DNA of 64,000 bases from Clostridia bacterium. Its GTDB lineage: Bacteria; Bacillota; Clostridia; Oscillospirales; CAG-272. Both the position numbers and the translations under genes were made by a program. This document shows, one piece after another, positions 2,049 to 43,987 of the stretch. The notes beneath the pieces are model-generated. The model was not told the DNA's origin. It saw only the letters and a list, made by a program, of their open reading frames with translations, and searched no databases. The stretch spans positions 2,102 through 66,101 of the forward strand of contig JAGCXA010000021.1 of NCBI GenBank assembly GCA_017961575.1. The letters run 5' to 3'. Numbering within the stretch: the stretch's first letter is position 1; each line of letters starts with the position of its first letter.

Positions 2049-3752
2049 TTACTCAGCGGAGATTAAGAAGTCATAGAGGGGCTGCCCGCCGTCCACCGCC
2101 GTCGCCTCCGCGTTCTTCCCGCAGACTTGCCCGATCAGTTCGACGACCGCTTCCCCTTCCTCCTCGGTGACGTCGGCGCCGCGGAACACGGTCAAAAACT
2201 CCGCCGTCTTCACGCCGTCAAGGAGCGCGGAAAGGCAATCGGTGCGGTCCGCGGCGTGGCAAACGATCTTGCCGCGGAGCAGTCCGAGGTACTCGCCCTG
2301 CCGGACGGTTTCGCCGTTGACGACCGAGTCGCGGACGGCGCGCGTGACCGAGAGAGACGAGACGCCCTTCATCGCCGCCTCCATCGCGTTCTTGTTGTCG
2401 TCGAGCGAACGTTCGGGATCGAACGCCATCATAACGGCGATCCCCTCCTGGATCGTGTAGGTCGGGATCACGACGACCTTCTTTTTCTTTTCAAGAAGCG
2501 CCGCCTGCGCCGCGACCATACAGATGTTCTTGTTGTTCGGGAGGACGAAAACGACCTTCGACGGGGTGGCGCGCACCTGCGTCAGGACGTCGTTGGTACT
2601 GGGGTTCATCGTCTGCCCGCCCTTGACGATCCGGTCCGCGCCGAGATCGCGGAACGCGGCGACGATCCCCTCGCCCGTACAGACCGAAACAAAGCCGTAT
2701 TCCTTCTCGGCTTTGACCTCTTTCGGGGGAAGCAGGGACTTCGTGATCTTCGCCGCGCGTTCGGCGGCGCCTTCCAGTTTGCCCGCCGCGACGGCGACGG
2801 GAGACGGCTTCTTTTCGGTCGTCAGACTGGTGTGCTGTTCGCGCATATTCTCGACCTTGACGGTCAGGAGCGCGCCGTATTTCACCGCCTCGGAAAGCAC
2901 CTTGCCGGGGTCGGAGGTATGCACGTGGATCTTGACGATCTCCTCGTCGTCGACGAAGACGGCGCTGTCGCCGGCGGAAAGGACGAAGGCGCGGAAGTCG
3001 CCGCAGGTCCCCTCTCCCTTGAACTCGACGCTCTTGCCGACGATGCACTCGGTGCAGTAGGGATAGACGATGTCCTCGGTCGAGAACTTCTCAAAGACCG
3101 TGCCGCTCCCTTCGCTTCTCGCGGCGGCGAGCGCGACCGGTTTCCCGTGCAGGGCGGCGATCATTCCTTCCAGCACGACGACGAATCCCATCCCGCCCGA
3201 ATCGACGACGCCCGCCTGTTTTAAGACGGGGAGCATCTCGGGGGTCTTGTTCAGCGTTTCGCGCGCGACGTCGAGGATCTTGTCGAAGAGTTCCTGCATC
3301 GTGGGGGGATTCAGTTTCCTCCCCGCCGTTTTCTCCGCCGCCTCGGCGGACAGGCGCATCACGGTCAAAATCGTCCCCTCGGTGGGGTTCGAGACCGAAC
3401 GGTACGCCTCCTCGGTCCCGAGTTTGAAAGCGCGGGCAATATCGGGCAGGTCGGCGCGGTCGATCTCCTTGAAAGCACGGGAAACGCCCCGGAAGAAGAG
3501 CGAGAGGATCACCCCCGAGTTGCCGCGCGCCGAACGGAGCGCCGTCGACGCGATCTCACGCGAGACTTCGTCGACCGTCTCGCCCTCGCGTCCCGCGGGG
3601 GAGATGCTGCCGAGGGTCATACTCATATTGATCCCCGTGTCGCCGTCGGGCACCGGGAAAACGTTTAAATCGTTGATTTTCTGCTTCGCGTTTTCAAGGG
3701 CGTTTCCCGCGGAAACGACCATCGAACGGAACAGAGAGCCGTTGATCTTCAT
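2049..3752 (-). CDS. yloV: DAK2 domain fusion protein YloV
   Basis: 567 aa. N-terminus MKINGSLFRSMVVSAGNALENAKQKINDLNVFPVPDGDTGINMSMTLGS is the typical DhaL/YloV signature. Confidence 0.9.
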   Translation of the reverse strand: MKINGSLFRSMVVSAGNALENAKQKINDLNVFPVPDGDTGINMSMTLGSISPAGREGETVDEVSREIASTALRSARGNSGVILSLFFRGVSRAFKEIDRADLPDIARAFKLGTEEAYRSVSNPTEGTILTVMRLSAEAAEKTAGRKLNPPTMQELFDKILDVARETLNKTPEMLPVLKQAGVVDSGGMGFVVVLEGMIAALHGKPVALAAARSEGSGTVFEKFSTEDIVYPYCTECIVGKSVEFKGEGTCGDFRAFVLSAGDSAVFVDDEEIVKIHVHTSDPGKVLSEAVKYGALLTVKVENMREQHTSLTTEKKPSPVAVAAGKLEGAAERAAKITKSLLPPKEVKAEKEYGFVSVCTGEGIVAAFRDLGADRIVKGGQTMNPSTNDVLTQVRATPSKVVFVLPNNKNICMVAAQAALLEKKKKVVVIPTYTIQEGIAVMMAFDPERSLDDNKNAMEAAMKGVSSLSVTRAVRDSVVNGETVRQGEYLGLLRGKIVCHAADRTDCLSALLDGVKTAEFLTVFRGADVTEEEGEAVVELIGQVCGKNAEATAVDGGQPLYDFLISAE

Positions 3753-3780
3753 TTCGTGCTTGCGTTCCTTTCGTCAAGGG

Positions 3781-4647
3781 TCAACGCTTATTTCCGAGGA
3801 AGAAGAGAGCGAGCGTTCCGGGTCCCGAATGGGAGCCGATCACGTGTCCGGTGTAGCCGATCTCGACCCGCTTGATCCCGAAGGTCTCCTTCACCCAGCC
3901 GGCAAGTTCCTCGGCGTCGTCCTGACAGTCGCCCTGACAGATGAAGACCGTCTGATCCTCCGGGAGGATCGCCGAGTTCTTCATATGTTCGAGAAGGGCG
4001 CGCATCGAGTTCTTGCGTCCCTTCGCCTTCTCCATATTGATGAGGTGTCCCTCGTCGTCGACGTGGAGCACCGGGCGGATGTTCAGCATCGTGCCGAGCA
4101 GAGCCGTCGCGCCGGAAATGCGTCCGCCGCGCTTCAGGTGGAAGAGGTCGTCGACGGTGAACCAATGGCAGAGGTTAAAGCGCGTCCGTTCGGCGTAGTC
4201 GAAGGTCTCGTCGATCGAGTGACCGGCGCGCGCGTATTTCACGGTATGGAAGACGAGCAACCCCTCTCCGAGCGAGGCGGCGAGGGTATCGACCACGAGG
4301 AATTTGCGGTCGGGGTACTTCTCTTTCAAGTCCTCCGCCGCGATCTTCGCCGCGTTGCAGGAGGCGCTGAGCCCGGACGAGAAGGCGAGGAAGAGAACGT
4401 CGACGCCCGACGCGAGGACCGGTTCGACTGCCTCGATGACCTCCCCGACGCTGTACGCCGCGGTCACGGCGGTGCATTTGGCGCGGAGAGCGTTGTAGAA
4501 GTCGGGATAATCCATCGTCAGCCCGTCGATCACGGTGCCGTCGGGCTTCGTCAGGGTCGTTTTCAGTTCGAGGACGGAAACGTCAAGTTCCTTGATCAGT
4601 TCGGGGGTCAGATCCGACCCCGAGTCGGTAAAAATACGAAAATCCAT
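3781..4647 (-). CDS. DegV family fatty-acid-binding protein
   Basis: MDFRIFTDSGSDLTPELIKELDV... DegV-like. Start moved to ATG 4647 (AGGAG RBS in taaggagacacaaATG). The track's 90-aa N-terminal extension translates the hairpin repeat array and crosses the promoter. Confidence 0.9.
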   Translation of the reverse strand: MDFRIFTDSGSDLTPELIKELDVSVLELKTTLTKPDGTVIDGLTMDYPDFYNALRAKCTAVTAAYSVGEVIEAVEPVLASGVDVLFLAFSSGLSASCNAAKIAAEDLKEKYPDRKFLVVDTLAASLGEGLLVFHTVKYARAGHSIDETFDYAERTRFNLCHWFTVDDLFHLKRGGRISGATALLGTMLNIRPVLHVDDEGHLINMEKAKGRKNSMRALLEHMKNSAILPEDQTVFICQGDCQDDAEELAGWVKETFGIKRVEIGYTGHVIGSHSGPGTLALFFLGNKR

Positions 4648-4726
4648 TTGTGTCTCCTTATATCGGAACCGGATGAAACCGGATGATTTCTTGCGGTTTT
4701 TCGGGCGTTTTTGCCCGTACTTTTTT

Positions 4727-4755
4727 ATTATACCACGCAATATGGTTTTTGTCAA
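4727..4755 (-). promoter_or_regulatory. SigA-type promoter of the degV-yloV operon
   Basis: Minus strand TTGACA-17 nt-TATAAT with TGg extended -10 (ttgacaaaaaccatattgcgtggtataat). Confidence 0.6.
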
Positions 4756-4791
4756 CAGATGTGCGGTTTTTTGGTGTCCGCATTTTTGAAT

Positions 4792-5143
4792 CCGCACGAA
4801 GTGCGGTATGTCATCCACGCGCAGCGTGGCATGTAATCCGTGCAGAGCACGGTATGTAATCCACCCAAAAGGTGGTATGTAATTCGCCCGCAGGGCGACC
4901 GTAACCAAGTCTTTCACTCAAAAGCGTGGAACTTACCGCTTGCGGGGCAAGCGGATTGGATTACATACTGCGCGCAAGCGCGCAGATTACATACGCGCCT
5001 GCGGCGCAATTACATACCGCCCGCGCGGCGGACGGATTACATCCACCCCTACGGGGTGATTTGGAACGACGGGGACGGATTACATCCACCCCTACGGGGT
5101 GATTGGGAACGACGGATTGCGTTCCACGCCGCGCGCGGCGTGG
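4792..5143. repeat. Hairpin array 1: 12 GC-rich palindromes joined by the constant linker TATGTAAT (left arm) / ATTACATA (right arm)
   Basis: Palindromes start at 4792, 4815, 4838, 4861, 4884, 4936, 4968, 4995, 5017, 5044, 5087 and 5124, with nine linker copies. Read directly from the sequence. Confidence 0.85.
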
Positions 5144-5158
5144 ATTCGGAAGCAATGG

Positions 5159-6067
5159 TTACGACAGGGAGAGGGTGCGCGCGATTTGGCGGGAGATCTC
5201 GCGCGGCAGATCGTCGGGGCGGACGCCGTAGGCGGAATACTGTTCGGTCAGCGCGTCGCCCGCCGCGCCGTGCAGGTAAACGGCGAGGATCGCGGCGTCG
5301 CGGGGGTCAGACCCCTGTGCGAGAAGCGAAACGAGAAGTCCGGCGAGCACGTCGCCGCTCCCGCCCTTGGCAAGCCCCGATCCGCCGGTCGTATTGACGG
5401 CGACTTCCCCGTCGGGGGAGGCGATCACGGTCCCGGCGCCCTTTAAAACGAGGGTGACGCCGTACTCTTCGGCAAAGCGGGCGGCGACGCCGACGCGGTC
5501 GGAGTTGATCTCGTCGACCGGGAGACCCGACAAGCGGGCGAATTCAAGGGGATGCGGGGTCAGGATCACGGGACGCGCGGCGACCTTCAAGCGTTCGAGC
5601 GACGTCTCGCGCGCAAGGGCGAGCGCGTTCAGGGCGTCGGCGTCGAGGACGACGGGACAGCCCGGCGCCGCGAGCAGTTCACAGAGCGAGAGACGAAGCC
5701 GATCGGAGCATCCCGAACCGCAGCCGACGAGGACGGCGGTCGCCCGCGCGGCGAGGTCAAGCGGCAGATACGCGCCGATCTTCGAGGGCGAAAACGCCGT
5801 ACCGATAACCGACGGCGCGCGGGAGAGGACGAGCGAAACGACCGACTCGCACGAGACGATCTCGACAAGCCCCGCGCCGCCCGCAAGCGCCGCCTCGGCG
5901 GAAAGGCACGCCGCGCCGCGGTATTGTTCGCTCCCGCAGTAAAGGAGGGCGCGTCCGAAGGTCCCCTTGTTGCCGTCCTCGGGACGGGCGGGGATCAGCG
6001 ACGCGGCAAACGCGGCGTCGAGTAGGCGCGGCGAGCCGATCTTCTCTTGTTCGGGCTGTTTTTTCAT
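5159..6067 (-). CDS. nnrD: ADP-dependent NAD(P)H-hydrate dehydratase (YjeF C-terminal, carbohydrate-kinase family)
   Basis: 302 aa. NKGTFGRALLYCGS...VLDADALN...GGSGLAKGGSGDVLAGL motifs. Confidence 0.85.
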   Translation of the reverse strand: MKKQPEQEKIGSPRLLDAAFAASLIPARPEDGNKGTFGRALLYCGSEQYRGAACLSAEAALAGGAGLVEIVSCESVVSLVLSRAPSVIGTAFSPSKIGAYLPLDLAARATAVLVGCGSGCSDRLRLSLCELLAAPGCPVVLDADALNALALARETSLERLKVAARPVILTPHPLEFARLSGLPVDEINSDRVGVAARFAEEYGVTLVLKGAGTVIASPDGEVAVNTTGGSGLAKGGSGDVLAGLLVSLLAQGSDPRDAAILAVYLHGAAGDALTEQYSAYGVRPDDLPREISRQIARTLSLS

Positions 6068-6178
6068 ACCGTTTCCTCCCGGCGAAGTTCATCTTTCTTT
6101 TCCGATTTTCCATTATAGCACGAAGCGTCCGTTTCCGCAAGTCATTCCCGATTTTTCGCCCTTTCGGCAAAAAAACAC

Positions 6179-6207
6179 TTTACAGAAACGCGGTTTTGTG
6201 GTATACT
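6179..6207 (+). promoter_or_regulatory. SigA-type promoter of the cytidylate-kinase-like gene
   Basis: TTTACA-17 nt-TATACT with TGg extended -10. The start codon follows an AAGGAGG RBS. Confidence 0.55.
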
Positions 6208-6250
6208 GTATACGGAACCGAGATCGCACAAGCGAAGGAGGATTTTTGAT

Positions 6251-6883
6251 ATGGCGGATAAGATTGTCATCACGATCGCACGGCAGTACGGAAGCGGCGG
6301 GCGCGAGATCGGCGAGAAGGTCGCCGACGCGCTCGGCATCAAGCATTACGACGAAAACCTCATCACCCTGGCGGCGCGGGAGGGGAATCTGGACGAAACG
6401 GTGGCGAGCAAAGCCGACGAGAGCGCGGCGAACAGTCTGCTCTACACGCTGGCGCTCGGATCCAACTTCTTCGGGTCGGCGATGAACTTCGGCTACAAGC
6501 CGCCGCTCAACGACAAACTCTTTCTTCTGCAATCCGACGTGATCCGTCGGGCGGCGGAAGAGGGGAGCTGCGTCATCATCGGGCGCTGCGCCGACTACGT
6601 TCTGCGCGAACATCCGAAGCGGCTCTCGATCTTCGTCTACGGCGATCTTCCCAACCGGAAACAGCGCGTGATGGAACGGCACGAGGGGATCACCGAAGCG
6701 CAGGCGATCGACCTCATCAACAAGACCGACCGGCGGCGCTCGTCCTACTACAACTTCTACACCGGGAACAAGTGGGGCAAATACGACAACTACCACCTCG
6801 CGGTGAACAGCAGTCTGCTCGGGATCGACAAGACGGCGGAGTTGATCGCGGATATGGCAAAACTCCTTATGGAGAAAAAATAA
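6251..6883 (+). CDS. Cytidylate kinase-like family protein (P-loop-like QYGSGG)
   Basis: 210 aa. MADKIVITIARQYGSGGREIGEKVADALGIKHYD... is typical of the Cytidylate_kin2 family. Confidence 0.8.
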   Translation: MADKIVITIARQYGSGGREIGEKVADALGIKHYDENLITLAAREGNLDETVASKADESAANSLLYTLALGSNFFGSAMNFGYKPPLNDKLFLLQSDVIRRAAEEGSCVIIGRCADYVLREHPKRLSIFVYGDLPNRKQRVMERHEGITEAQAIDLINKTDRRRSSYYNFYTGNKWGKYDNYHLAVNSSLLGIDKTAELIADMAKLLMEKK

Positions 6884-6895
6884 TCTGTTTGAATC

Positions 6896-6922
6896 GCCCG
6901 GGCGGAAACGCCCGGGCTTTTT
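6896..6922 (+). terminator. Intrinsic terminator
   Basis: gcccgggcg-gaaa-cgcccgggc, a 9-bp stem plus ttttt. Confidence 0.8.
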
Positions 6923-6933
6923 CGTTTTCGAAT

Positions 6934-7359
6934 CCAAGCCGCCCGCGGCTTGGTACGTGATCCGCCCCCGTCGTTCCAAATCACCCCGGAGGGGTGGATG
7001 TAATCCATCCGCCGCGCGGATGGTATGTAATTGCGCCGCAGGCGCGTATGTAATCCGTTCGCGAAGCGGACGGTATGTAATCCGCTTGCCCCGCAAGCGG
7101 TACGGTATTCGCAAGGGACGAAAAAACCCGGCACCACCTCATCTGTCATTCCGTGACATCTTCCCCTCAAGTGGAAGACTTGGTACGTCCCCTGCGGGAA
7201 ATTCCATACAATGCTTCGCATTGGTTACATACTGCCCTTTGGATGGATTACATACCGTGCTTTGCACGGATTACATGCCACGCTTCGCGTGGATTACATA
7301 CCGCACTTCGTGCGGATTTGGAACGACGGGGGGCAGATTACATACCGCACTTTGTGCGG
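6934..7359. repeat. Hairpin array 2: inverted copy of array 1, same linker-plus-variable-hairpin architecture
   Basis: Palindromes start at 6934, 6982, 7005, 7033, 7055, 7082, 7209, 7232 (degenerate), 7255, 7278, 7301 and 7345. Linkers are TATGTAAT, then ATTACATA. Confidence 0.85.
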
Positions 7360-7455
7360 ATTTGGAACGAAACAGAAAAGTTTACATTTTGGGATGGTAT
7401 TTCAGGGAATAGTATGGTAAAATGGTAGAAGAGAAATTATGCGAAGGAGACCGAT

Positions 7456-10221
<2,766 letters not shown>

Positions 10222-10225
10222 CGCC

Positions 10226-10840
10226 ATGGGATTCGGCGTTCTTCTGTTCGGGTACTTTCTCTACCTGAATACGATCATCCCGGTCTACACCGTCCCCGTC
10301 GCGGGGATCGTGATGGCGTTCGGACTTCACAAACTGAAAGTGTGGAACAGCGGGTTCCGCGGGGCGGCGTACGCCAATCTCGCGACGGTGCTCTACGGGC
10401 TTTTCCCCCTCGGGCTCGCCGTTGCCGACGTCGCCGGTGCGACGGTCTCCGAGACCCTCTCCGCCGCGGCGTCCGCCGGGCTCTATCTTCTCGTCGCGCT
10501 CTTCCACTTCTATCTCGGATCGGGGATCGTCTCGCTCTCGCGGGAGGTCGGACTTCCCCGTTTGCGCTCCCGCGCATTCTTCTTCCGCACCGCCGCCTGC
10601 ATCTATTGGACGCTGTACGCTTTTCTCAACCTGGATCTCGGAGAAAAACTCGAACCCGTCCTCGCGCGGCTGTTCGTTCCGATGGTGGTCGTCGGATTCG
10701 TCGTCTCGCTCGTCGGATTCGCCGTGCTTTTCTCCTGCTACACCGACATCGGGATGCCGGATGAAAAAAACGCCCCGGAAAAACCGGGGTTTCTTGCCCG
10801 TATGAAACAAAAGAACGGAGAGGATCGAAAAGATGGCTGA
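10226..10840 (+). CDS. Hypothetical polytopic membrane protein
   Basis: 204 aa with about 6 hydrophobic segments. Starts 4 nt after the secA stop. No family recognised. Confidence 0.6.
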   Translation: MGFGVLLFGYFLYLNTIIPVYTVPVAGIVMAFGLHKLKVWNSGFRGAAYANLATVLYGLFPLGLAVADVAGATVSETLSAAASAGLYLLVALFHFYLGSGIVSLSREVGLPRLRSRAFFFRTAACIYWTLYAFLNLDLGEKLEPVLARLFVPMVVVGFVVSLVGFAVLFSCYTDIGMPDEKNAPEKPGFLARMKQKNGEDRKDG

Positions 10841-12352: not shown

Positions 12353-13102
12353 TTATTCGGGGTCGGGCGTCTCCGCCCAAGCAGACGCGGACAGGCGCTG
12401 CAAACGGTTGAGCGTCGCCGAGACCTCGCGGTTATCGGGCATATAGCGGTCGAGGGCGGCGTGAAAATCGCGTCCGTGATCGGGATAGCGCAGGTGGAGC
12501 AGTTCGTGGAGCAGCACGTAGGAAAGGCACGCGGGCGGATACTCGGCAAGCGAGAGCGACAGATGGATCGCGCCCTTCCGGTGGTAGCAGGTTCCCCACC
12601 GCCGCGCCATTTTCCGCACCGTGAGAGAAGCGGGGGAAAGCCCGGTCATCCGGGACAGGACGGGGAGCAGTTTTTCCGCCTCGTTCTGTACCTCTTTGCG
12701 GTAGAAGGATTCGAGCGCCGCCGCGCGGCGGGCGGGATCGTCGCTCCGCGCCGAGAGGATCATCCCCTCCTGCGTGAGCGAAACCCCCGGCGCCCCGACG
12801 CGGGAATGAAGGCGCAGGCGTCTTCCCCAGAGAAGGGCGTACTCGCCCTCTCCGTAGCGGCGTTCGCGTCCGGGATCGGCGGGAAAGGTCGCGATCTTCG
12901 CGTCGAGCCACGCGCGTTTGCCCGCGACGATCCGTTCGATCTCGCCCGTCGGGGTCGACGTCGGCGCGGTCACGCGCACCGCCCCGAACGGGGGCAGCAC
13001 GGCGATGGTCACGCGGCGCACGCGGCGCCGGAGCAAAAGAACGGGAAAACCGGCGAGCGTGACGCGCTCTCCGGCGTTGTTTGCTGTCGGTTCGTTCGGC
13101 AT
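12353..13102 (-). CDS. YgjP-like M48/SprT-like metallopeptidase (DUF45)
   Basis: HELLHLRYPDHGRDFHAALDRYMPD zinc motif. Start set to ATG 13102 (GGAGGG RBS). The track ORF is over-extended to 13321. Confidence 0.75.
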   Translation of the reverse strand: MPNEPTANNAGERVTLAGFPVLLLRRRVRRVTIAVLPPFGAVRVTAPTSTPTGEIERIVAGKRAWLDAKIATFPADPGRERRYGEGEYALLWGRRLRLHSRVGAPGVSLTQEGMILSARSDDPARRAAALESFYRKEVQNEAEKLLPVLSRMTGLSPASLTVRKMARRWGTCYHRKGAIHLSLSLAEYPPACLSYVLLHELLHLRYPDHGRDFHAALDRYMPDNREVSATLNRLQRLSASAWAETPDPE

Positions 13103-13170
13103 CCGTTCATCCCTCCCCGGTGAAGAGATCGCCGCCGTACCGAGTACGGCGGCGATCGAAAAAGCGAAAA

Positions 13171-13752
13171 TCAGACGGTCTGCGGATCCGCGCCGGGATC
13201 GGCGATCGGCATCTCCTCCGCGCGCACCTCGCCCTCGTTCACTTCGAGATGCAGGTAGGAAAGCGCCTCGTGCAGAACCGAAAGGAAGGCGTCGTTCACT
13301 TCCAGCGAGACCGAAACGCATTCCCCGTCGTCAAGGATGAAGTAGAGCGTCTGCCAAGTCGCGGGCGACATACTGACGAGAAACTTCATCTGCGTATCGA
13401 CGCGCAGTTCGCGCGGTCCGTCCTCCCCGCGCCGGAACTCGCGGATCTCGGAGAGATCCGAGAAGGAACGCTGGCAGACCGTCGTGGTCTGGTTCCCGCG
13501 GCGCTGATTGACGATCAGGGTCGGGATCCCGCTCATCAGCGTGACGGTGTAGGTGTAATGCAGGAAAAAGAAGCGCGAATAGATCCAGATGTCGGCGACG
13601 GCGAAGAGGAAAAAGGCGATCTGTCCGAAGATCGGTTTCCCCCACTCGAAGACGCAGTAAAGAACCGAGACGACAAGCCCCGCCGTAAGGAACGCGAGCC
13701 ACCAGAGGGGGCGGTTATTCTGCCGTTTCGGCGTATAGGAAAAAGTGCGCAT
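13171..13752 (-). CDS. Hypothetical membrane protein (two N-terminal TM helices plus a soluble domain)
   Basis: 193 aa, hydrophobic WWLAFLTAGLVVSVLYCVF and IAFFLFAVADIWIY. No family recognised. Confidence 0.55.
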   Translation of the reverse strand: MRTFSYTPKRQNNRPLWWLAFLTAGLVVSVLYCVFEWGKPIFGQIAFFLFAVADIWIYSRFFFLHYTYTVTLMSGIPTLIVNQRRGNQTTTVCQRSFSDLSEIREFRRGEDGPRELRVDTQMKFLVSMSPATWQTLYFILDDGECVSVSLEVNDAFLSVLHEALSYLHLEVNEGEVRAEEMPIADPGADPQTV

Positions 13753-33943: not shown

Positions 33944-34326
33944 TCGCCCCCTCTTATGTATTCCGTCGGATCGTAATACTCGTCCGACAAGGTTAAAAGA
34001 ACCGCGTCGCTTGAAAAATCGTACATATCCTTCCAGACCAGTTTCGGAACGTAGAGCCCGACGTTCGGTCGGTCCAGCGTGACGACGTACTCTTCGGTTC
34101 CGTCATACAGCCGGATCTTACAACTCCCGGCAAGATTGATAAAGACGAAGTCGGATTTCTTATTGGCGTGCCGACCCCTGACCGTATCTTCGTTCGCCCC
34201 GTAAATGTAAAAGATCCGCTTGATTTCGAACGGAATATCTTTGAGCGCTTCGACGACGACCAGTTGCCCCCTCTCGTCTCCGCGTTCCGTGAATTCAAAC
34301 AATCTGCATTTTTCCCTCAGATTCAT
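33940..34326 (-). CDS. fdtA: dTDP-4-keto-6-deoxyhexose 3,4-ketoisomerase (FdtA/WxcM-like cupin)
   Basis: 128 aa from ATG 34326 (overlaps the upstream stop). [24 protein letters not shown]...RGRHANKK...[28 protein letters not shown] closely resembles FdtA. Confidence 0.7.
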
Positions 34327-35426
34327 ACTTCCCCCCGAAACCCGTTCAGGATCTCGATGACGTAATCCTGTTCTTCTTTTTTCATTCCGGTATACAAAGG
34401 CAAACTCAAAACCGTCGAGGCGTATTCCTCCGTGATCGGGAAGTCGCCCTTCCGGTATCCCTGCCAAGCGTAACACTCGGCGAGATGCGGCGGAATGGGA
34501 TAGTGGATCTGCGTCTGGATGCCGTTTTCCTCCAAGTAGTCGTGCAGCGCGTCCCTTTCCGCGCAGCGGATCACGAACTGATGATACACGTGGTTCACGC
34601 CCGCAAGCGTTTCGGGTTTTATGATTTTCGGGTTGCGGATCCCGTCGTAATATCTCTTGCCCAAAACGTATCTCTCGTTCGTGATTTCATCCATATGGGA
34701 CAGTTTGACTCTCAGGAGCGCCGCTTGCATCTCGTCAAGCCGTGAATTGACCCCCTCGATCTCGTTGTGATACTTTACGCGGGAACCGTAATTTCTCATC
34801 ATACGGATTTTCCCCGCCAGATCCGCGTCCTCGGTCACGACGCAGCCGGCGTCGCCGAACGCTCCCATGTTCTTCGTCGGGTAAAAACTGAAACATCCGA
34901 TTTTTCCGAACGTCCCGGTTTTTTTGCCCTGAAAGCAGGACTCGTGAGACTGCGCGCAATCCTCGATCACCGGAAGACCGTGCCGATCAGCCACCTCCAT
35001 GATTCTGTCCATCCGGGACGCCTGACCGTAAAGATGGACGACCATAACGGCTTTCGTCTTATCGGTAATCTTTTCTTCGATTTTGTCCGCGTCGATATTG
35101 AAATACTCGTCGGGTTCCACGTAAACGGGGGTCGCGCCGTTCTCCGTGATTCCGAGCACCGTTGCGATGTACGTGTTCGCCTGAACGATCACCTCGTCGC
35201 CTTCCCCGATTCCGAGCGCTCTGACCGAGAGGATCAGCGCGTCCAAACCGGAGTTCAATCCGACGCAGTATTTCGCGTTCATATGCTTGCCGAACTCTTC
35301 TTCGAACTGCTTTACCTCGTTGCCGAGGATATACCACCCGGATTTCAGAACGCGCAGAGCTGCCGCGTCATATTCGCTTTCAAACATCCGGTATTGCCTG
35401 TCCAACACGTTGCAACTGATCTTCAT
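34323..35426 (-). CDS. DegT/DnrJ/EryC1/StrS-family sugar aminotransferase (FdtB/QdtB-like)
   Basis: 367 aa, LDRQYRMFESEYDAAALRVLKSGWYILGNEVKQFEEEF..., PLP-lysine region FSFYPTKNMGAFGDAG. Confidence 0.85.
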   Translation of the reverse strand: MKISCNVLDRQYRMFESEYDAAALRVLKSGWYILGNEVKQFEEEFGKHMNAKYCVGLNSGLDALILSVRALGIGEGDEVIVQANTYIATVLGITENGATPVYVEPDEYFNIDADKIEEKITDKTKAVMVVHLYGQASRMDRIMEVADRHGLPVIEDCAQSHESCFQGKKTGTFGKIGCFSFYPTKNMGAFGDAGCVVTEDADLAGKIRMMRNYGSRVKYHNEIEGVNSRLDEMQAALLRVKLSHMDEITNERYVLGKRYYDGIRNPKIIKPETLAGVNHVYHQFVIRCAERDALHDYLEENGIQTQIHYPIPPHLAECYAWQGYRKGDFPITEEYASTVLSLPLYTGMKKEEQDYVIEILNGFRGEV

Positions 35427-35453
35427 TCGTGTACGTCCTCCCGCGGCGGTCCT

Positions 35454-36596
35454 TTACGGAATATATCTTCTGGATATTTGTCTGTACGAAAAGTGCTTCA
35501 TTCCATTGTCCGCCGCCGACTGCATTTTTTGAAGTTCCGATTCGTTTTCGATCAGCGTGACCAGATTCTCGTAGATCTCGTCTGCCGAATCGCGGTACAG
35601 GAAGCGCACGTTTCCGCCGATATCGATGTGCGTTGTGCCTTCCCAATACTTTACGATCATGGGTTTCCCGAGTCCGACGACCTGCTCCCAATAAACCGAA
35701 TGCCTGCCGGGAAAGACGACCAGATCCGCCATATTGAAATAACGGTAACTCTCCCGCGAATCCAACCATCCGGCATAGAAAACACGATCGTTCAGTCGCT
35801 CTGAAAACGCATCCTTTATCTCTTCCGAAACCGATCCGAAAACGATCAGTTTCACGTTCTTCCGTTCTATCCTTTTCACCGCGTCCATCAACAGGAGCGT
35901 CTGCGTCTTGGCGGCGTCGATCTTTCCGCCCGTAACGATCAGGAAATCGTCGTCTTTGATTCCGAATTTGTCTTTCAGATCGTCGTTCGGCGTTCTCTTC
36001 GTTTCCTCGACGATCTCATCGTCGGCGCCCATTACCAGGAGTTCCGTCTTATCTGCCGGAATCTTATACACGTTCTTCAAAAAGTCTACTCTGGCGGGCA
36101 AAACGCCGAAGAATTTTTGCGCGTAGGGGACGAGTTTTTGCGCGTAGTGCCTCCAAATAATCTTGTGCAGGACGTTCTTTGACAGAAAGCCCCTCGCGCT
36201 GTTTGAAAAATCGGCGTGATTGTCGACGTACAGCACCGTCTCCGGGTGACGGCGCATATACTTCGCGACGACCTTCGTATCGATGAAAGAGCAACTGTGA
36301 CAAAACAGAATGTCGGGCTGCACCTCGCACAGTTTCTCGTAAACGCCGACAAACCGTTTCAGTCTTCTGCCGTAGTCGTTTCTTCCTTTGATCTCGAACC
36401 GATAGTAGGAAACTCCCTCGTAAACGTAGGAATCCCTCTCGTCGTAAAACAAAACGCCCTCGTTGTTATAGATCCATTTGGCGGCGAAAATATAGGTGTC
36501 GTATCCGTCCAGACGATTGAATTTCGACAGATTGTTTTCCTGATAGTTAAAGCCGGGCGTAACCGCGCCGTTCAGAGCGAGATGAACGATCTTCAT
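35454..36596 (-). CDS. Glycosyltransferase (GT-B, family 4/1-like)
   Basis: 380 aa with the C-terminal pattern of the GT1/GT4 fold. Overlaps the next gene by 4 nt. Confidence 0.6.
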   Translation of the reverse strand: MKIVHLALNGAVTPGFNYQENNLSKFNRLDGYDTYIFAAKWIYNNEGVLFYDERDSYVYEGVSYYRFEIKGRNDYGRRLKRFVGVYEKLCEVQPDILFCHSCSFIDTKVVAKYMRRHPETVLYVDNHADFSNSARGFLSKNVLHKIIWRHYAQKLVPYAQKFFGVLPARVDFLKNVYKIPADKTELLVMGADDEIVEETKRTPNDDLKDKFGIKDDDFLIVTGGKIDAAKTQTLLLMDAVKRIERKNVKLIVFGSVSEEIKDAFSERLNDRVFYAGWLDSRESYRYFNMADLVVFPGRHSVYWEQVVGLGKPMIVKYWEGTTHIDIGGNVRFLYRDSADEIYENLVTLIENESELQKMQSAADNGMKHFSYRQISRRYIP

Positions 36597-37603
36597 TTGC
36601 TGGCACTTCCTGTTTGCTTCATAATATTGGACAGTCTGGTGATTTTAAAGGGCATCACGTAATTCTGAATGAATCGGAACACGGGGTTTCTGTACGTGGA
36701 CCGTTTGGCGGAAAACCGAATGGAATACCGTTCTTCCAAGTACTCTCTTTTCCTGTGTATCTCATTCAGGTACTTCCCGTATATTCTCGTCTTCAAAAAG
36801 CGGTTGCGCTTCTTCAAATTGATGTTCACCAACCCGAAGGGGAGATACCGGATATTCTGGAAATGATAGAAACAGAGCGGAAAACGCTCGTGGGATTCAT
36901 TATCGGTCAGATAATAGCGTTGATCCCGACAATCGAAAGAATACCGCTCGGCGTTCCATGGCGCGACCCCGCCGCCCGGATTTTGAAGAATATGAACGCA
37001 GGCATATCGGGAAGGCCACTTTTCCAGATACATCTGATCGCCGTGCGTTTCGCTTCCCTTGTTATAACTGCAAGATCTCATACAGTCGCTGACCCAGCTG
37101 CTTAAAACCTCTCGGGCGGCTTCCGTGTTCAGAAACGTGTTGAACTCCACGCAGAACGTACCGTATTTCTTTTCCAGACTGATTCTTTTTCTTTCCGGGA
37201 AACCGTGTCTGACGATCAGAACTTCTTTTCGATCCTCCGTCATTTCAAGTAACAGGTCGCTCGGATCGGAAAAAAAGTACATATCCGCGTCGATATACGT
37301 GCAAACGGGTTCGTGAAAATAATCCAGCACGTATTGGATCGTCAGGGGCGTCCAGGTCCAGCAATACTCCGCAAAGGATCTGTTCCGTTTGATCTCCCGC
37401 AATTCTTCGTTTTCGAGCGAAGAAACGTCGACGCAGATCACGTTCTCGTCGGTCGTTTCTTCCAGAATGCGGAACGCTTCCGGATCCATTGCGAAAATAT
37501 ACAGTTTGAAATCGGGCGCCGCTCTTTTCAGCGAGTCGACCAAAACGAGACCTTTGTCAAGATAGCCGCGGTTAAACAGCGTGCAAAAAACGTTATAATT
37601 CAT
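36593..37603 (-). CDS. Putative nucleotide-diphospho-sugar transferase (GT8-like)
   Basis: 336 aa, MNYNVFCTLFNRGYLDKGLVLVDSL...YIDADMYF (DxD-like). Confidence 0.5.
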   Translation of the reverse strand: MNYNVFCTLFNRGYLDKGLVLVDSLKRAAPDFKLYIFAMDPEAFRILEETTDENVICVDVSSLENEELREIKRNRSFAEYCWTWTPLTIQYVLDYFHEPVCTYIDADMYFFSDPSDLLLEMTEDRKEVLIVRHGFPERKRISLEKKYGTFCVEFNTFLNTEAAREVLSSWVSDCMRSCSYNKGSETHGDQMYLEKWPSRYACVHILQNPGGGVAPWNAERYSFDCRDQRYYLTDNESHERFPLCFYHFQNIRYLPFGLVNINLKKRNRFLKTRIYGKYLNEIHRKREYLEERYSIRFSAKRSTYRNPVFRFIQNYVMPFKITRLSNIMKQTGSASK

Positions 37604-37607
37604 TATC

Positions 37608-39044
37608 TTACCTCGTTTTTCTTAACCTGAACGACCGAAAACAGTCCTTTTGGAAAAGCATCAAATAGAAAAACGACAGAACCGTCGCGGTACCCCCGCC
37701 GATCAGGATCTTTGCCACGAGTGAAAGAACGCCGAAAGACCACAAGCGGTTGAGGAACAGAATCTCAACGAACATAATCGCACCGATTATGCCGAAAGCG
37801 ACGAACGGCTGAACGAACGCGGAAAAACGGATCGATTTTCTGCACAGAACGATCTGGTAGACCAGTCCGAACAGTTCCGCCGACAGGGTGCCGATGATGG
37901 CTCCGTAGATCCCGATGAACGGGATCAGCGACGCGCTGAGCGCCAGATTGACCGCCGCGCTGAGGCACAGGCAGACGGTGAATTCCTTATCTCTTCCGTA
38001 GGGCAGCAGGAACCCGGTCCGGATCACGTCCCCGATGCAAAGGACGTAGATGACGGGAGACAACGCCCGGATAACCGTCCCGCATTCGACGAACTCTTCT
38101 CCGTAATAGACGACAGCCAATTCTTTGGAAACGGCAAGCAACCCGAAAATGGAAAGCAAAGAAACGAAAGAGGTAATCAGAGCCGCGAGTCTCACGAGCC
38201 GTTCGTGTTCCGCGGTATCTTTTTCTTTCACCAGAAAACAGATCCTCGGATAAAGGATCGTTCCGATTACCAAGGCAACGGATTTCGGAATGTTGATGAT
38301 TTTGTTCGAGTATTCGTAGATGGCGACGTCGTCGGTTCCGACGATGAGACCGATCAGAGTCTTGTCAAACAACGTATAGAGCGTGGCGGCAATAACGCTG
38401 ACGAACAGAACCGACAGGGGTTTCAAGTGAACGGCGCAATCGCGCGGCTTCACTCTTATCGGCTTGCAAAAAAGCAACGCGGTCAAAAAGAGCACGACGT
38501 CGGCGGACAAAAGGCACGTCGCCGTAATCAGGGCGTACTTCCAAAGATCCGCCTCGCTTTTCACGAACGTGAAAATCAAAACCATTTCCGCGATCTTGAA
38601 AAGCGCGTTCACAAGGGCAACCGACCGGAAATCCTCTTTCCCTTGGAAGAACCACGTTACGTCGAACAGAGCGGTCAGGACGTAGAGCGCTTCAATTAAG
38701 TAGATCGTCCGATGATCGGGAATGAAAAAGATAACGATGAAATAGACGCAGAGAGCCACGACCGAAAAAGCCGCGTGAACCAGATACAGACTCCAAAAAG
38801 AAGAACGCTCCCCAAATTTGTCGCCGCCGCTCGACGCGATCGCTCTCGGACCGTATTTGGCGATCCCCAGCATCGAAAAAACGATAAAGTAGAAGGCGAA
38901 CGTATTTACGAACGTAAAAACGCCGATCTCATTCTTTCCGATCGTTCTCGTCAAATAAGGCGCGACGAAAAGAGGAACGACCATTGTTACAGCCAAATAT
39001 ACAGTTTGATAAAAATAATTGGCGGCAACGCTCTTTCTTTTCAT
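37608..39044 (-). CDS. Oligosaccharide flippase (Wzx / polysaccharide biosynthesis protein family)
   Basis: 478 aa with about 12-14 hydrophobic segments. Lies within the glycosyltransferase cluster. Confidence 0.7.
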   Translation of the reverse strand: MKRKSVAANYFYQTVYLAVTMVVPLFVAPYLTRTIGKNEIGVFTFVNTFAFYFIVFSMLGIAKYGPRAIASSGGDKFGERSSFWSLYLVHAAFSVVALCVYFIVIFFIPDHRTIYLIEALYVLTALFDVTWFFQGKEDFRSVALVNALFKIAEMVLIFTFVKSEADLWKYALITATCLLSADVVLFLTALLFCKPIRVKPRDCAVHLKPLSVLFVSVIAATLYTLFDKTLIGLIVGTDDVAIYEYSNKIINIPKSVALVIGTILYPRICFLVKEKDTAEHERLVRLAALITSFVSLLSIFGLLAVSKELAVVYYGEEFVECGTVIRALSPVIYVLCIGDVIRTGFLLPYGRDKEFTVCLCLSAAVNLALSASLIPFIGIYGAIIGTLSAELFGLVYQIVLCRKSIRFSAFVQPFVAFGIIGAIMFVEILFLNRLWSFGVLSLVAKILIGGGTATVLSFFYLMLFQKDCFRSFRLRKTR

Positions 39045-39934
39045 TATTCGTCTTCCCTGATTCTCTTTATTAAATCCAGGCGTCCGTCAAACAGAGAACG
39101 GATCTGCTCGTCGTTTTTCAAGCCGTTCACGTTCTGCGTCATCAGTTTTTGGTTGTTTTTGATCATCAGATCGACGAAAACGAAATGCTCGTATTCCTTC
39201 GTTTTCACGACCTTGACCGAGTTTTCGAGACTATTGTATTTCAGCCATACGTCGTCGGCTGTCGGCGTCTTTTTCATAAACGATTCCCGATCGAGCAAAA
39301 GATCCGTTTTCATACGTCCGGCGGGATAACAAACGCCCCCGCATCCGATCGGCATAATCCGATACATAGGCACGCCGGTCTCCGTCTCTCTTTCCCACGT
39401 CGAATACGCGGCAAAGGAGTCGTTTTCCACGAGCATACGGGAGCCGACGGTGCAGGAAACGAATCTGTTTTCCGAAGCCCCGAGCAGTACCTCAACGAGA
39501 TCTTCCGGATAGATCATATCGTCGTCAACCGTGATGATCGTTTTTTCTCCGTATTCCTGGAAAGCGTAATAATACTTCTTATGAGACCGGAGATCTCCGT
39601 CGACCAACCGGATTTCCGCGAGCTGATTCTGATGCAATTTCAGGAGTTTTTTCGGCAGCACGGAAAGGTCGCCGAACTGATCGCGCGACAGATACAAAAC
39701 GATTTTTTCGGGCGGCACGGTTTGCCGGAGCAGCGACTCGATTACGAGATGGACCTTCCCGATTCTGGCGGGAAAACTGGTCAGTGAAACGACTACGTCC
39801 GGGCGCTTGCCGTCGGTTTTCCTTGAAGAGAACTTCAAACAGATCGGATAAAAGCAATTCAGAAACAGTTTATAAAACCGATATTTTGTAAGTCCGAACC
39901 GGGAATCCACCCGCTTATAAATCTCTTTGATCAT
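39044..39934 (-). CDS. Glycosyltransferase (GT-A like)
   Basis: 296 aa, VVVSLTSFPARIGKVHLVIESLLRQTVPPEKIVLYLS...TVDDDMIYP (DxD). Confidence 0.55.
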   Translation of the reverse strand: MIKEIYKRVDSRFGLTKYRFYKLFLNCFYPICLKFSSRKTDGKRPDVVVSLTSFPARIGKVHLVIESLLRQTVPPEKIVLYLSRDQFGDLSVLPKKLLKLHQNQLAEIRLVDGDLRSHKKYYYAFQEYGEKTIITVDDDMIYPEDLVEVLLGASENRFVSCTVGSRMLVENDSFAAYSTWERETETGVPMYRIMPIGCGGVCYPAGRMKTDLLLDRESFMKKTPTADDVWLKYNSLENSVKVVKTKEYEHFVFVDLMIKNNQKLMTQNVNGLKNDEQIRSLFDGRLDLIKRIREDE

Positions 39935-39956
39935 ATCTCACTCCGTCGCTTCGGTA

Positions 39957-41117
39957 TCAATAGTAGTAAAAGGCGAGCAGATAGTAGGACGTCATCCACA
40001 AATCGCAAAGAGCAAACAGGATGACGGCGGATACCCCTTTGAATCTGAGCGTTTTCGCCCCCCAGTTGGCGCTGAGAATATTCGAGAGCGCGGAATAGAC
40101 GATAAAGCTGGCAAGAAAAACGATCCGAAACGATCCTTGAATCGTATTGTATACCGCCAAAAGCACAATGCTTATCAACGTGCAAAGCGCAAGAAAATGC
40201 TTATCCTTTTGCCGGGCTTCGAGTCGTTCGGATACGCGCGGGTCGTTTTCCGCCCCGCCTTGCCCGGCGTCGCCCGGATCCGGAAGCGAAACCGAAACGA
40301 ACGAATCAAATTTGAAAATGAGCCAGATGCAGCAGAGGATCGGAAAGAGGTTGATTAAAAGGAACGAGATATTCAGCAGAACCGGTTCGTCAAGAGACGA
40401 CGAACGGAAAAGATAGTACTGTACTTTCTCAAGCAGATCGAAACTGGATTTCTTATGCTCGCCCAGATTCAGGAACCTCCAAGGGATCAGCGCCAAAAGT
40501 CCCGCGGCGATCAGCGGTTTATAGATCTTCCGTTTTCTGAAAGCCACGACGATTTCGATCAGCAGCGCCAAGACCGAGGAGTAATGGAATCCGATCGCGA
40601 ACAAATAGAGGACGGCTTTCCCGATTTTGTTTTTCGTATGATACGCCGCGTAGATGAAGGCGATCGCAACGATCGCGCGCGTCAGATCGAAGTGATACAT
40701 CATCAACACAGAGAACGAGAACAGGTGCGCGAGCGGCTTTTCCGCGCGAAGAATATTCGCGCCGAAGATCGTAAACGGAATCATATAAAGCAGAAGACAG
40801 AACTGCGCAAAACTGAGCCCCAGAATCTTTGACAGACTCATCGACAGGAGATAAAACGGTTCAAAATGCGCCGCAAAGAGTTTTTTCAAACTGAACCCGC
40901 TGAAAAAGTCCGACACGGAAAACGTGTGGTAATCCAACGTATAATTGACCCAGTCCAACCCCAGCGTTCGGAAAGAATAAATCAAAAGCAGAACGATCAG
41001 AATGCCGAGCGATATTCTTGCCTGAACTATGTAGGAAGAATTCCGGTACAGATAGGAAATGACAAAAATCAGCGCGAAAAGACAAATAAAAATGATAAAT
41101 TGCGGCTCTTTGTTCAT
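39957..41117 (-). CDS. EpsG/Wzy-like polysaccharide polymerase membrane protein
   Basis: 386 aa, polytopic, aromatic-rich. Position in the cluster supports the call. Confidence 0.55.
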   Translation of the reverse strand: MNKEPQFIIFICLFALIFVISYLYRNSSYIVQARISLGILIVLLLIYSFRTLGLDWVNYTLDYHTFSVSDFFSGFSLKKLFAAHFEPFYLLSMSLSKILGLSFAQFCLLLYMIPFTIFGANILRAEKPLAHLFSFSVLMMYHFDLTRAIVAIAFIYAAYHTKNKIGKAVLYLFAIGFHYSSVLALLIEIVVAFRKRKIYKPLIAAGLLALIPWRFLNLGEHKKSSFDLLEKVQYYLFRSSSLDEPVLLNISFLLINLFPILCCIWLIFKFDSFVSVSLPDPGDAGQGGAENDPRVSERLEARQKDKHFLALCTLISIVLLAVYNTIQGSFRIVFLASFIVYSALSNILSANWGAKTLRFKGVSAVILFALCDLWMTSYYLLAFYYY

Positions 41118-41129
41118 ATCATCACCATT

Positions 41130-42308
41130 TCAAAACAGAATTGAATTCAGCGAATCCAGCAGTTTGTTTTTATCAAAGCAACGCTTCACGTAACGCAGCG
41201 CGTTCGTCCTGAACGTCCCGGCGTCCGAGCGCCTCAAAACGGAAATGGCGGACGCAAGCGCTTCCGGGTTCCCGGTTTCACAGCATACGCCGCATCCGGC
41301 TTCGTTGATTATTCTTTCGGTCTCTCCCGAAGCCGACGCAAGAATCGGCATTCCGCAAGCCATATAACTCTGCAATTTTGCCGGAATCGTTTTGTTGAAC
41401 AACGGATGATCCATAAACGACACGAACGCCGCGTCGCAAGTGCAGAGCAATTCCGGTATTCTTTGCGCGGGCTGACGGTTGATGAACAAAAACTTCTCTT
41501 TTACGTCGGCGGTTTCCTCTACGAGTTGTTCTTTATACCTTCCGTCGCCGACAATGACGAACAGGACGTCGTCGACCAGTTTGGCGACCTTCGGCAGAAT
41601 ATCAAGCCCCTGCGCCGTTCCGACGTTGCCGGTAAAGATGATCTTGAATCTGCCGTCGTTAGGGATCTCCGCGGGCGACGGGTCCTCGACCGGTTTGTAG
41701 ATCTCCTCCGCGTATTGGGGCCAATAAACGACCTTCTCTTTATCCGTCACTCTCTCCCGGATCGCCTCCACGAAAGAGGGGGACGTCGCGAGCACCTTCG
41801 TACAAGCGGCGTACAACTTGTCCGCCATCTTCTGATAATGATTCAGGACGCGCTTGTTATGAACGCCGCCGACGGCTTCCAGATTTTCGGGCCACAAATC
41901 CTGTACGTAGAGATAACTCGGGATCTTTCTTCTTTTGGAAAACCACTTGCCTATCAACGCCTGCGTCAGAGGTGAAACTTCAAAAACGAAAACCGCGTCC
42001 GGTTTCAACCCGGTAAACGTCTTCCACAGCCAGCCGGACCATACGAAAGAATAATAATTCAGAACGAGTCGAAGAGAAGAGCGTCCCCTGGATATGATGG
42101 GGAGACGGATAACGTCTATCCCGTTCCAATTCTCTTTTCTTTTTCTGAACCAGCCGTATCCTTTATAGAATTTTCCCTCGGGATAGTTCGGTATTCCCGT
42201 CAGAACGGTGACCTTGTACCCCCGCGAGACCCACTCTTGGCATATATCGTTGATCCGGAACGGTTCCGGATAAAAATACTGCGATATAACCAGAATGTGT
42301 TTGCTCAT
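41130..42308 (-). CDS. Glycosyltransferase family 4 (WbuB-like)
   Basis: Start set to ATG 42308 (overlaps the upstream stop). MSKHILVISQYFYPEPFRINDICQEW... Confidence 0.7.
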   Translation of the reverse strand: MSKHILVISQYFYPEPFRINDICQEWVSRGYKVTVLTGIPNYPEGKFYKGYGWFRKRKENWNGIDVIRLPIISRGRSSLRLVLNYYSFVWSGWLWKTFTGLKPDAVFVFEVSPLTQALIGKWFSKRRKIPSYLYVQDLWPENLEAVGGVHNKRVLNHYQKMADKLYAACTKVLATSPSFVEAIRERVTDKEKVVYWPQYAEEIYKPVEDPSPAEIPNDGRFKIIFTGNVGTAQGLDILPKVAKLVDDVLFVIVGDGRYKEQLVEETADVKEKFLFINRQPAQRIPELLCTCDAAFVSFMDHPLFNKTIPAKLQSYMACGMPILASASGETERIINEAGCGVCCETGNPEALASAISVLRRSDAGTFRTNALRYVKRCFDKNKLLDSLNSILF

Positions 42309-43815: not shown

Positions 43816-43987
43816 TTGCCGAGACTCCAATTTCGATTACTTGCCTTTCTTTATTATCCGACTGCGCCGTACGGTCGCCGCGAATCAAAAAACCGCAGAC
43901 GCCCCGCGAAAGCGCGCCTTTCGTTTCCGGCAAAAGCCGGACGCTTCTCTTGCGCGCGCGACGCGCCGCGAAAAAAACTCTTTGTAT

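Follow-up and report, generated by a model that had tools for sequence, protein, structure and literature searches.

Two inverted hairpin arrays between the DegV and SecA genes

The window, i.e., the whole 64,000-nt stretch of DNA analysed here, holds two arrays of short hairpins, with the genes for DegV and FakA to their left, those for an NAD(P)H-hydrate dehydratase and a cytidylate kinase-like (Cmk-like) protein between them, and secA to their right. Array 2 (6934-7372) consists of two inverted arms of short GC-rich hairpins, in which an 8-nt linker lies between units (TATGTAAT in the left arm, ATTACATA in the right arm), and it spans most of the 572-nt spacer ahead of secA. The features are as follows (L numbers denote the loci with which the window was compared):

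4789 to 5146: array 1, inverted second copy of the element
6896 to 6922, plus strand: intrinsic terminator of the Cmk-like gene (terminator scan), a 9-bp GC stem and T-run; left neighbour of array 2, outside the element
6934 to 6953: outermost left hairpin of array 2, CCAAGCCG-cccg-CGGCTTGG; position-specific, recurs at element ends in L009, L013 and L060
6954 to 6981: outer-type linker region, a degenerate TACGTGAT and then CGTCGTTCCAAAT; inverse of the right-arm GATTTGGAACGACG
6982 to 7100: left arm, hairpins at 6982-6996, 7005-7023, 7033-7045, 7055-7073 and 7082-7100; period 23 or 27 nt
6997-7004, 7024-7031, 7047-7054 and 7074-7081: left-arm (G/T)ATGTAAT linkers
7101 to 7208: variable centre (~108 nt), short local palindromes without the linker motif
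7209 to 7315: right arm, hairpins at 7209-7223, 7232-7246 (degenerate), 7255-7269, 7278-7292 and 7301-7315; period 23 nt
7224-7231, 7247-7254, 7270-7277 and 7293-7300: right-arm (A/G)TTACAT(A/G) linkers
7316 to 7372: outer right module, ATTTGGAACGACGG..., ATTACATA, the hairpin 7345-7359 and the terminal ATTTGGAACGA
7413 to 7423, plus strand: extended -10 TATGGTAAAAT (TRTG-n-TAAAAT), likely secA promoter, read from alignments of filled and empty sites; downstream of the array
7445 to 7449: secA Shine-Dalgarno sequence GGAGA, with the ATG at 7456

The left arm comprises six GC-rich hairpins, perfect or near-perfect, four of which are followed by (G/T)ATGTAAT, and the right arm has six hairpins with (A/G)TTACAT(A/G) ahead of each. 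Examples are ccaagccg-cccg-cggcttgg (6934-6953) and cacccc-gga-ggggtg (6982-6996) on the left, and caatgc-ttc-gcattg (7209-7223) and ccgcac-ttt-gtgcgg (7345-7359) on the right. The hairpins of the two arms differ, i.e., the arms are not copies of each other; the right-arm hairpin at 7209-7223 (CAATGC-ttc-GCATTG) is conserved across species, and the outer right module is part of a 44-nt tandem duplication (period 44, 7292-7387). An earlier sequence-only reading had placed the array at 6934-7359, ending ~95 nt before the secA start: all twelve palindromes that it listed, as well as both linkers, lie where it put them, and the end of the last hairpin is 97 nt from the secA ATG. The right boundary moves to ~7372, where the element ends with the terminal ATTTGGAACGA motif.

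Array 1 is flanked by the stop codon of the NAD(P)H-hydrate dehydratase gene (5159) and by the DegV promoter (4755-4727, minus strand), which matches the sigma-70 consensus at 12 of 12 positions, has a TG extension, and is kept in relatives with and without array 1 (gene calls put the true start of the DegV gene at ~4647). The sequence-only reading ascribed the same architecture to both arrays, and the likeness goes further than that: each arm of array 1 is complementary to the opposite arm of array 2 (right to left 84% over 129 nt, left to right 93% over 94 nt), so that the two arrays are the same element, inverted. After reverse-complementing one of them, they align end to end, which implies that the seemingly variable hairpins are inherited in fixed order. 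The two copies differ in the length of the centre (shorter in array 1) and in the number of outer units. A composite transposon, in which two inverted copies would carry the intervening genes, was considered and rejected, as array-free relatives have the same gene order.

A hairpin-density scan of the window flagged only arrays 1 and 2 and a GC-rich coding stretch (12800-13250). Elsewhere in the window, a minus-strand gene run (34300-43900) has a third-position GC of 0.61-0.71 compared to ~0.8 in other parts and encodes sugar epimerase-, glycosyltransferase- and sugar-transferase-like proteins; it is probably a horizontally acquired polysaccharide cluster. A 921-aa open reading frame on the minus strand (7462-10227) is exactly antisense to secA; it is a mirror ORF, as often seen in GC-rich coding sequence, and not a gene.

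Anatomy of the unit

The array family is real and statistically solid. The 12-mer GGATTACATACC occurs 19 times in the window with up to two mismatches, where 1.35 occurrences are expected, and 18 of the 19 lie inside the two arrays. A 446-nt stretch folds with -127.5 and -128.8 kcal/mol on the two strands, compared to about -73 to -76 kcal/mol in dinucleotide shuffles, and the z-score of the array 2 fold is about -12.7 on either strand. Among 36 distinct 23-nt units, which were pre-filtered for pairing, 96.8% of stem cells are paired, against 69.7% in column shuffles and 29-48% with slid partners, and double changes affect 54 stem cells (13.4 expected). When 85 units were parsed without a pairing filter, 524 of the 543 stem positions were Watson-Crick pairs.

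Within the hairpin, the C:G pair at the base and the one that closes the loop hardly vary, and each of the four middle pairs can be any standard pair. Within the linker (ATTACAT-R), T2, C5, A6 and T7 never vary, whereas A1, T3 and A4 are conserved to at least 90%. What is conserved in the unit is thus the linker together with the two end pairs of the stem, while the stem sequence itself is free; in the AT-rich host of L087, the stems are AT-rich and the linker is unchanged.

The imperfect pairs are not distributed evenly between the strands. On the ATTACAT strand, non-redundant stem mismatches comprise 14 A:C and 3 G:T (93 units; binomial p = 0.013), a count in which some events are common by descent and which corresponds to ~10-14 independent ones. 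The bias has the same direction in the window species, in the CAMJDE MAG and in the JAZODF MAG. An A:C mismatch on the ATTACAT strand is a G:T (G:U) wobble on the complementary ATGTAAT strand, and, as both arms were pooled, the bias tracks the polarity of the element and not the direction of replication or of the flanking genes. The commonest loops on the ATGTAAT strand are C-GAA-G and C-GCA-G (window and CAMJDE groups), which form very stable DNA triloop hairpins. The asymmetry is suggestive of one strand mattering as a single strand.

Two further readings of the units were set aside. In the minimum-free-energy fold of array 2, the left linkers pair with the right linkers, but the unit numbers of the two arms differ, their hairpins are unrelated, and one-armed arrays exist, all of which speaks against long-range pairing between the arms. 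The linkers were also considered as sigma-70 promoters: the 23-nt period equals the spacing from the start of a -35 to the start of a -10 hexamer, but the hexamers match poorly and a promoter scan calls none.

Gain, loss and strain variation

About 75 nearly identical Cmk-like alleles were retrieved. Two haplotypes, W and B, exist among contigs whose Cmk-like protein is identical, and their flanks differ by 2.0-3.6%. The right arm of array 2 differs by 12.6% between them, with several changes paired on both sides of a stem (e.g., CCGCAC-TTC-GTGCGG versus CCGCGC-TTTC-GCGCGG), and the left arm by 4.7%; haplotype B (L136/L138/L140) has another centre in array 2, ~80 nt longer, and one added unit. 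In array 1, the comparison of W with B yields zero substitutions, one 43-nt unit fewer (twice versus once) and a 5-nt indel. This patchiness fits better with recombination or conversion together with slippage than with a uniformly high mutation rate. Since the arrays vary between strains that are otherwise 96-98% identical, they lend themselves to use as strain markers.

Over slightly larger distances, entire arrays are present or absent. Neither site carries an array in L142/L143/L147 and L153-156, lineages at 94% and 95% Cmk-like identity, where site 1 measures 124-136 nt and site 2 ~160-197 nt, the latter compared to 572 nt when filled. In a lineage at 97% identity (L157), site 1 is empty; in another at 96% (L152), site 1 holds a mini element consisting of a single left and a single right unit, and site 2 an array of the same architecture with another linker (AATTCAC left, GTGAATT right). 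The arrays are multi-copy, extragenic elements that some close lineages have and others lack, and they change by gaining or losing units and by exchange of entire blocks.

Beyond array 1, the filled alleles of site 1 contain a degenerate relic, GGTGTCCG (cf. ATTGACCG), of the ancestral dehydratase stop region, and the last 5-8 codons of the dehydratase gene differ between alleles with and without the array (window 5159-5180 and 4775-4790; L152, L157, L153, L142). The relic and the altered C-terminus suggest an insertion into the last codons rather than a deletion in the relatives, and the insertion of array 1 seems, from these alleles, to have rewritten the end of the dehydratase. A comparison of filled and empty alleles at both sites yielded no definable target-site duplication or sharp ends, the junctions being too diverged to show or exclude a duplication.

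Some strains of an empty-site lineage (L144:1211-2389, minus strand; also L145 and L146) carry a 392-aa gene with its own terminator between the Cmk-like gene and secA, for which no Pfam match was recorded. The presence of this gene marks the spacer as a recurrent landing place.

Placement between terminator and promoter

As the sequence-only reading held, array 2 is not needed for termination of the Cmk-like gene, for which the scan found a separate terminator at 6896-6917 with its T-run. None of the array hairpins qualifies as a terminator in the same scan, and they are followed by TATGTAAT or ATTACATA, not by a T-run. At the other end, the last ~75 nt before the secA ATG are common to filled and empty lineages and contain the block GTTTACA...T(A/G)TGGTA(A/C)AAT...GGAGACCGA-ATG. 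Its central motif is presumably an extended -10 of the TRTG-n-TATAAT type that is common in Firmicutes; it is a reading from the alignments, at a place where a consensus promoter scan made no call. With this conserved -10 downstream of the array, the secA 5' UTR would be ~25 nt long and would exclude the array. Array 2 thus probably sits between the terminator of the Cmk-like gene and the promoter of secA, judging from the alignments, and the order terminator, array, promoter is found at four places: array 2, array 1, L009 and L006 (terminator 3616-3641, array 3682-3803, promoter 3822-3851).

Such arrays can be misread as leaders that regulate essential genes, secA among them. A secA-specific leader acting in cis would accord with an array that fills most of the 572-nt spacer, and the sequence-only reading implied such a role in the 5' region or UTR of the gene. 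However, copies are dispersed beside unrelated genes, the array is absent at secA in sister lineages that keep the promoter-proximal block, L152 has an array with a different linker at the same place and L144-146 have an unrelated gene, and the conserved extended -10 comes after the array. These observations do not support the implied role, and a secA-specific leader is hardly credible; array 2 is probably incidental to secA and not a control region of it.

Copies in other genomes

A search with a two-unit pattern retrieved 13 loci, which belong to three MAGs of uncultured Clostridia / Eubacteriales / Ruminococcaceae. Array-bearing sources include the MAGs CAMJDE01, JAZODF01 and CADBON01 and the ENA samples ERZ27256983 and ERZ28653829. 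Many of the copies lie at contig ends, as expected of repeats that break assemblies, and the arrays thus appear to be one cause of broken metagenome assemblies. One MAG has copies on at least six contigs and another has at least seven arrays, both being fragmentary assemblies. Among metagenome contigs, two more copies were found in sequence of lower GC content, L060 (46%) and L087 (37%); the pattern used there (ATTACAT-N14-21-ATTACAT-N14-21-ATTACAT) is loose, and among the matches listed, which are mostly AT-rich tandem repeats, only these two are real.

All copies are intergenic, and their neighbours are unrelated housekeeping genes (S20, L17, NAD synthase, a HAD hydrolase, an AraC regulator); outside the arrays, none of the copy-bearing loci resembles the window. 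Pfam searches with ten genes adjoining arrays and a comparison of all small neighbours with one another, covering small parts of the genomes, revealed no recurring neighbour gene. Certain parts of the element are shared in spite of this dispersal: position-specific hairpins recur across species, with CAATGC-GAA-GCATTG adjoining the centre and CCAAGCCGC-N-GCGGCTTGG at an outer end, and so does the outer linker (GTTCCAAATC / GATTTGGAAC), which is inverted between the arms. Array copies inside one MAG are just 70-86% identical, i.e., without sign of a recent burst. L060 and L087, apparently at the same locus, have conserved linkers and almost wholly different stems.

A four-helix-bundle gene, resembling those for 23S rRNA intervening-sequence proteins, lies directly downstream of the array in L060 (2026-2376) and L087 (997-1346); the L060 gene adjoins tRNA-Gln (2643-2718), and the L087 copy is apparently frameshifted. 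It was considered as a partner of the arrays and rejected, being absent near all other arrays and having no array on its far side.

One-armed arrays are common in the JAZODF MAG, where they start at a conserved leader (AATTTGACACGGG) and run in the same direction. A leader-like module, (G/A)ATAATTTGACACGGG-N8-10, followed by the hairpin GCCGCGCGGGGCGCGG, is seen in these arrays, and the hairpin also occurs at L142:4196-4215. The module includes a TTGACA without a matching -10. Its sites are:

L003: 2790-2830
L006: 3655-3680
L011: 2625-2650, 6140-6165, 6275-6300 and 6395-6420

The arrays could in principle be structured RNAs, in which transcribed hairpin-UAUGUAAU units serve as a sponge or scaffold for proteins or, as REPs do, as a stabilising barrier at mRNA 3' ends. 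Stem covariation and the concentration of G:U-compatible mismatches on one strand are compatible with this, and crude gene calls indicate that, for five out of six one-armed arrays of JAZODF, the 3' end of an adjacent gene runs into the array in that orientation. Moreover, two arrays abut a ribosome-binding site and are thus either transcribed or promoter-bearing: the L060 array ends ~25 nt from the start codon of the four-helix-bundle gene, and an array in L005 ends (at 1164-1180) ~15 nt from the RBS and start of a glycerol kinase-like gene, glpK (MPNYLMALDQGTTSSR...), with no room for a promoter between. However, the window copy and several others follow a strong terminator and precede the next promoter, so that they would be poorly transcribed. 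No promoter is evident in centres or leaders, Rfam has no match, and two-armed copies offer opposite strands to a single transcript. A structured RNA is therefore quite improbable.

Sister linker types

A linker-blind detector, which looks for runs of at least three hairpins, revealed arrays with related linkers: GTGATAT in JAZODF, GTGATGT/GTGACGT in CAMJDE, ATGACGT in L157-159, and (G/A)TGAATT in L142, L143, L151 and L152. The linker types fit R-T-K-A-Y-R-T. In L003, L005 and L011, a single array combines sister units with ATTACATA units, head to tail, and in every two-armed copy, the direction from linker to hairpin points outward from the centre. The arrays concerned are:

L011: 6166-6392, sister linker
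L003: 7733-7836, sister linker
L005: 1170-1330, sister linker
L157: 3637-3740, sister linker
L152: 3650-3935, two arms, AATTCAC / GTGAATT
L142: 4100-4180, two arms, AATTCAC / GTGAATT
L151: 2694-2775, two arms, AATTCAC / GTGAATT

The L152 array occupies exactly the site between Cmk terminator and secA promoter where the window has its ATTACATA array, and its outermost right segment, GGTTTCGGTTCGG, is like GGATTTGGAACGA of the window.

A bolder and decidedly tentative extension of these observations is that the arrays are the visible part of an undescribed Clostridia superfamily, in which chains of an RTKAYRT linker and a free hairpin are written, copied or read by a dedicated protein. The polar chains would start from a centre or leader, and the linker dialects would be joinable within one array and interchangeable at one site. 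The protein would recognize the single-stranded linker at the hairpin junction, on one strand, and could be either a new mobilising enzyme or part of a host system that uses arrays as gene spacers.

The last option touches on a more general alternative, namely that the arrays are intergenic DNA elements maintained by host selection, serving as topological or transcriptional insulators or as multivalent docking arrays for a protein of the nucleoid or topoisomerase type, as has been proposed for BIMEs. The recurrent order of terminator, array and promoter would be in keeping with such a role, as would a linker that is kept across hosts of 37 to 62% GC while the stems drift with genome composition, and the architecture shared by sister linker families, even at the same site in L152. 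However, close relatives lack arrays at both sites without any compensating change, the number and content of units differ freely from strain to strain, and the gap between a terminator and a promoter is also where neutral insertions survive. Host maintenance is accordingly considered rather improbable as the primary explanation.

Origin and spread of the arrays

The reading that we consider probable, if by no means secure, is that array 2 is a copy of a dispersed, non-coding, modular REP/BIME-like repeat, previously undescribed, that acts in the form of single-stranded hairpins. Each unit is an AT-rich linker of 7-8 nt (ATTACAT-R) with a short GC-rich hairpin after it, and two chains of such units diverge from a variable centre; array 2 would have reached the secA site by insertion. 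The relevant form may be the single-stranded hairpins on the ATGTAAT strand, most likely as ssDNA. Spread might depend on a protein that acts in trans and recognizes the linker at the base of the hairpin, in the way that HUH/RAYT-type enzymes read REPs; the arrays could then grow and shrink by slippage, and gene conversion between copies might homogenize them. If so, the family would point to a protein with a short and easily read single-strand specificity. Several observations weigh against this reading, among them the absence of a transposase or other recurring partner gene from the small genome parts covered (a weak test), the lack of definable ends or target-site duplications, the copies of 70-86% identity inside one MAG, the missing GT[AG]G tag and alternating layout, and the two arrays that abut a ribosome-binding site; moreover, the linkers kept and the stems replaced between L060 and L087 could reflect host-level selection rather than selfish spread.

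[quoted passage not shown] Two inverted arms around a variable centre, a size of 110-600 nt, the inverted terminal motifs GTTCCAAATCC and GGATTTGGAAC, presence or absence between lineages, and a 23-bp period of about two helical turns all agree with this proposal. However, binding to double-stranded DNA explains neither the palindromes kept through double changes nor the asymmetry of G:T and A:C mismatches between the strands. One-armed arrays are common in JAZODF, the arms carry different hairpins, and neither a target-site duplication nor a parent insertion sequence (IS) was seen in the loci examined. Such an origin is unlikely, and a REP/BIME-like repeat remains the preferred reading.

Comparison with known systems

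The family is apparently undescribed. No annotation of the arrays as a known repeat family was found: Rfam 15 has no array match, either over the whole window at gathering thresholds or over 4700-7460 at permissive settings, where only the terminator came up, with chance-level scores; collections of plasmid, phage and viral contigs contain no match to the array; and a literature text search for the 11/12-mer returned only unrelated primer sequences. CRISPRs resemble the arrays in the regular alternation of constant and variable sequence. In contrast to CRISPRs, where the repeat measures 23-50 nt, the spacers are unique and non-palindromic, and cas genes or a leader are expected, the constant part of the arrays is non-palindromic and 8-12 nt long, the variable part is a palindrome of 11-21 nt, and its order is fixed between copies; there is no CRISPR match over the arrays, cas genes are absent, and the arrays occupy many loci. 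The dRS3 / RS arrays of Neisseria are likewise intergenic mosaics, in which palindromes with conserved ends and a variable middle alternate with other modules. They differ in having fixed 6-bp ends and RS units of 50-150 bp, and they have no constant 8-nt linker or two-arm polarity.

Bacterial MITEs (Correia, Chunjie, Nezha) are small, non-coding, intergenic and variable in size, have inverted arms and are polymorphic for presence or absence, as are the arrays. The last feature is seen at the orthologous sites of arrays 1 and 2. As for terminal inverted repeats, the linkers and the outer motif of the arrays are inverted between the arms, with exact termini undefinable and one-armed copies among them. 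Eukaryotic Foldback elements offer an even closer parallel in layout, having long inverted arms of short tandem subrepeats around a variable centre. Unlike MITE and Foldback elements, the arrays have no target-site duplication or autonomous partner that could be seen (no autonomous IS sharing the array ends among the loci examined, which cover small genome parts), their arms are not mutual copies, one-armed forms occur, and the palindromic spacers covary.

The arrays are most like the REP/BIME elements and REPINs of Proteobacteria, which are mobilised by RAYT (TnpA-REP) enzymes of the HUH Y1 type, but they are not a canonical member of this group. Both are short, extragenic, GC-rich, multi-copy hairpins with compensatory stem changes, which form composite clusters of variable unit number; both have a short conserved single-stranded motif at the foot of the hairpin and a lineage-specific content. 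REPs lack target-site duplications, and none was seen for the arrays, with junctions too diverged to show or exclude them. Thauera has head-to-tail tandem arrays of small REPs whose stems measure 5 bp (PMC3733652), and RAYTs of Group 1 are found in Clostridia (PMC5581495). The tag of a REP is GTAG or GTGG, 0-2 nt 5' of a fully paired stem of 7-20 bp (PMC6006769, PMC3733652), and in a BIME, regularly spaced REPs alternate in orientation (PMC2817692). The GT[AG]G tag is absent from the arrays, where the linker is ATTACAT(A/G) / (T/C)ATGTAAT and the nearest approach to it is a GTAA 1 nt from the stem, on one strand; in sister linkers, a GTGA starts 3 nt from the stem. Stems of the arrays have 5-9 bp (mostly 5-8) compared to 7-20 bp in REPs, and whereas BIME units alternate, those of the arrays are direct tandems within each arm with a single switch of polarity at the centre, or belong to one-armed arrays. 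A RAYT was not found beside the arrays, which is a weak test, and the hosts of the arrays are Clostridia; with an approximate IS200 TnpA query, tblastn gave no match in the window or the loci, a weak test as well at a few kb per genome.

The most fundamental difference lies in what is conserved: in REPs it is the sequence of the stem, in the arrays it is the linker, while the stem is free. To our knowledge, nearly all described repeats of the REP/BIME type, with their RAYT partners, come from Proteobacteria. A family from uncultured gut or rumen Clostridia, in which a fixed linker and a free stem embody the opposite conservation logic, would therefore broaden the picture of how hairpin repeats spread.
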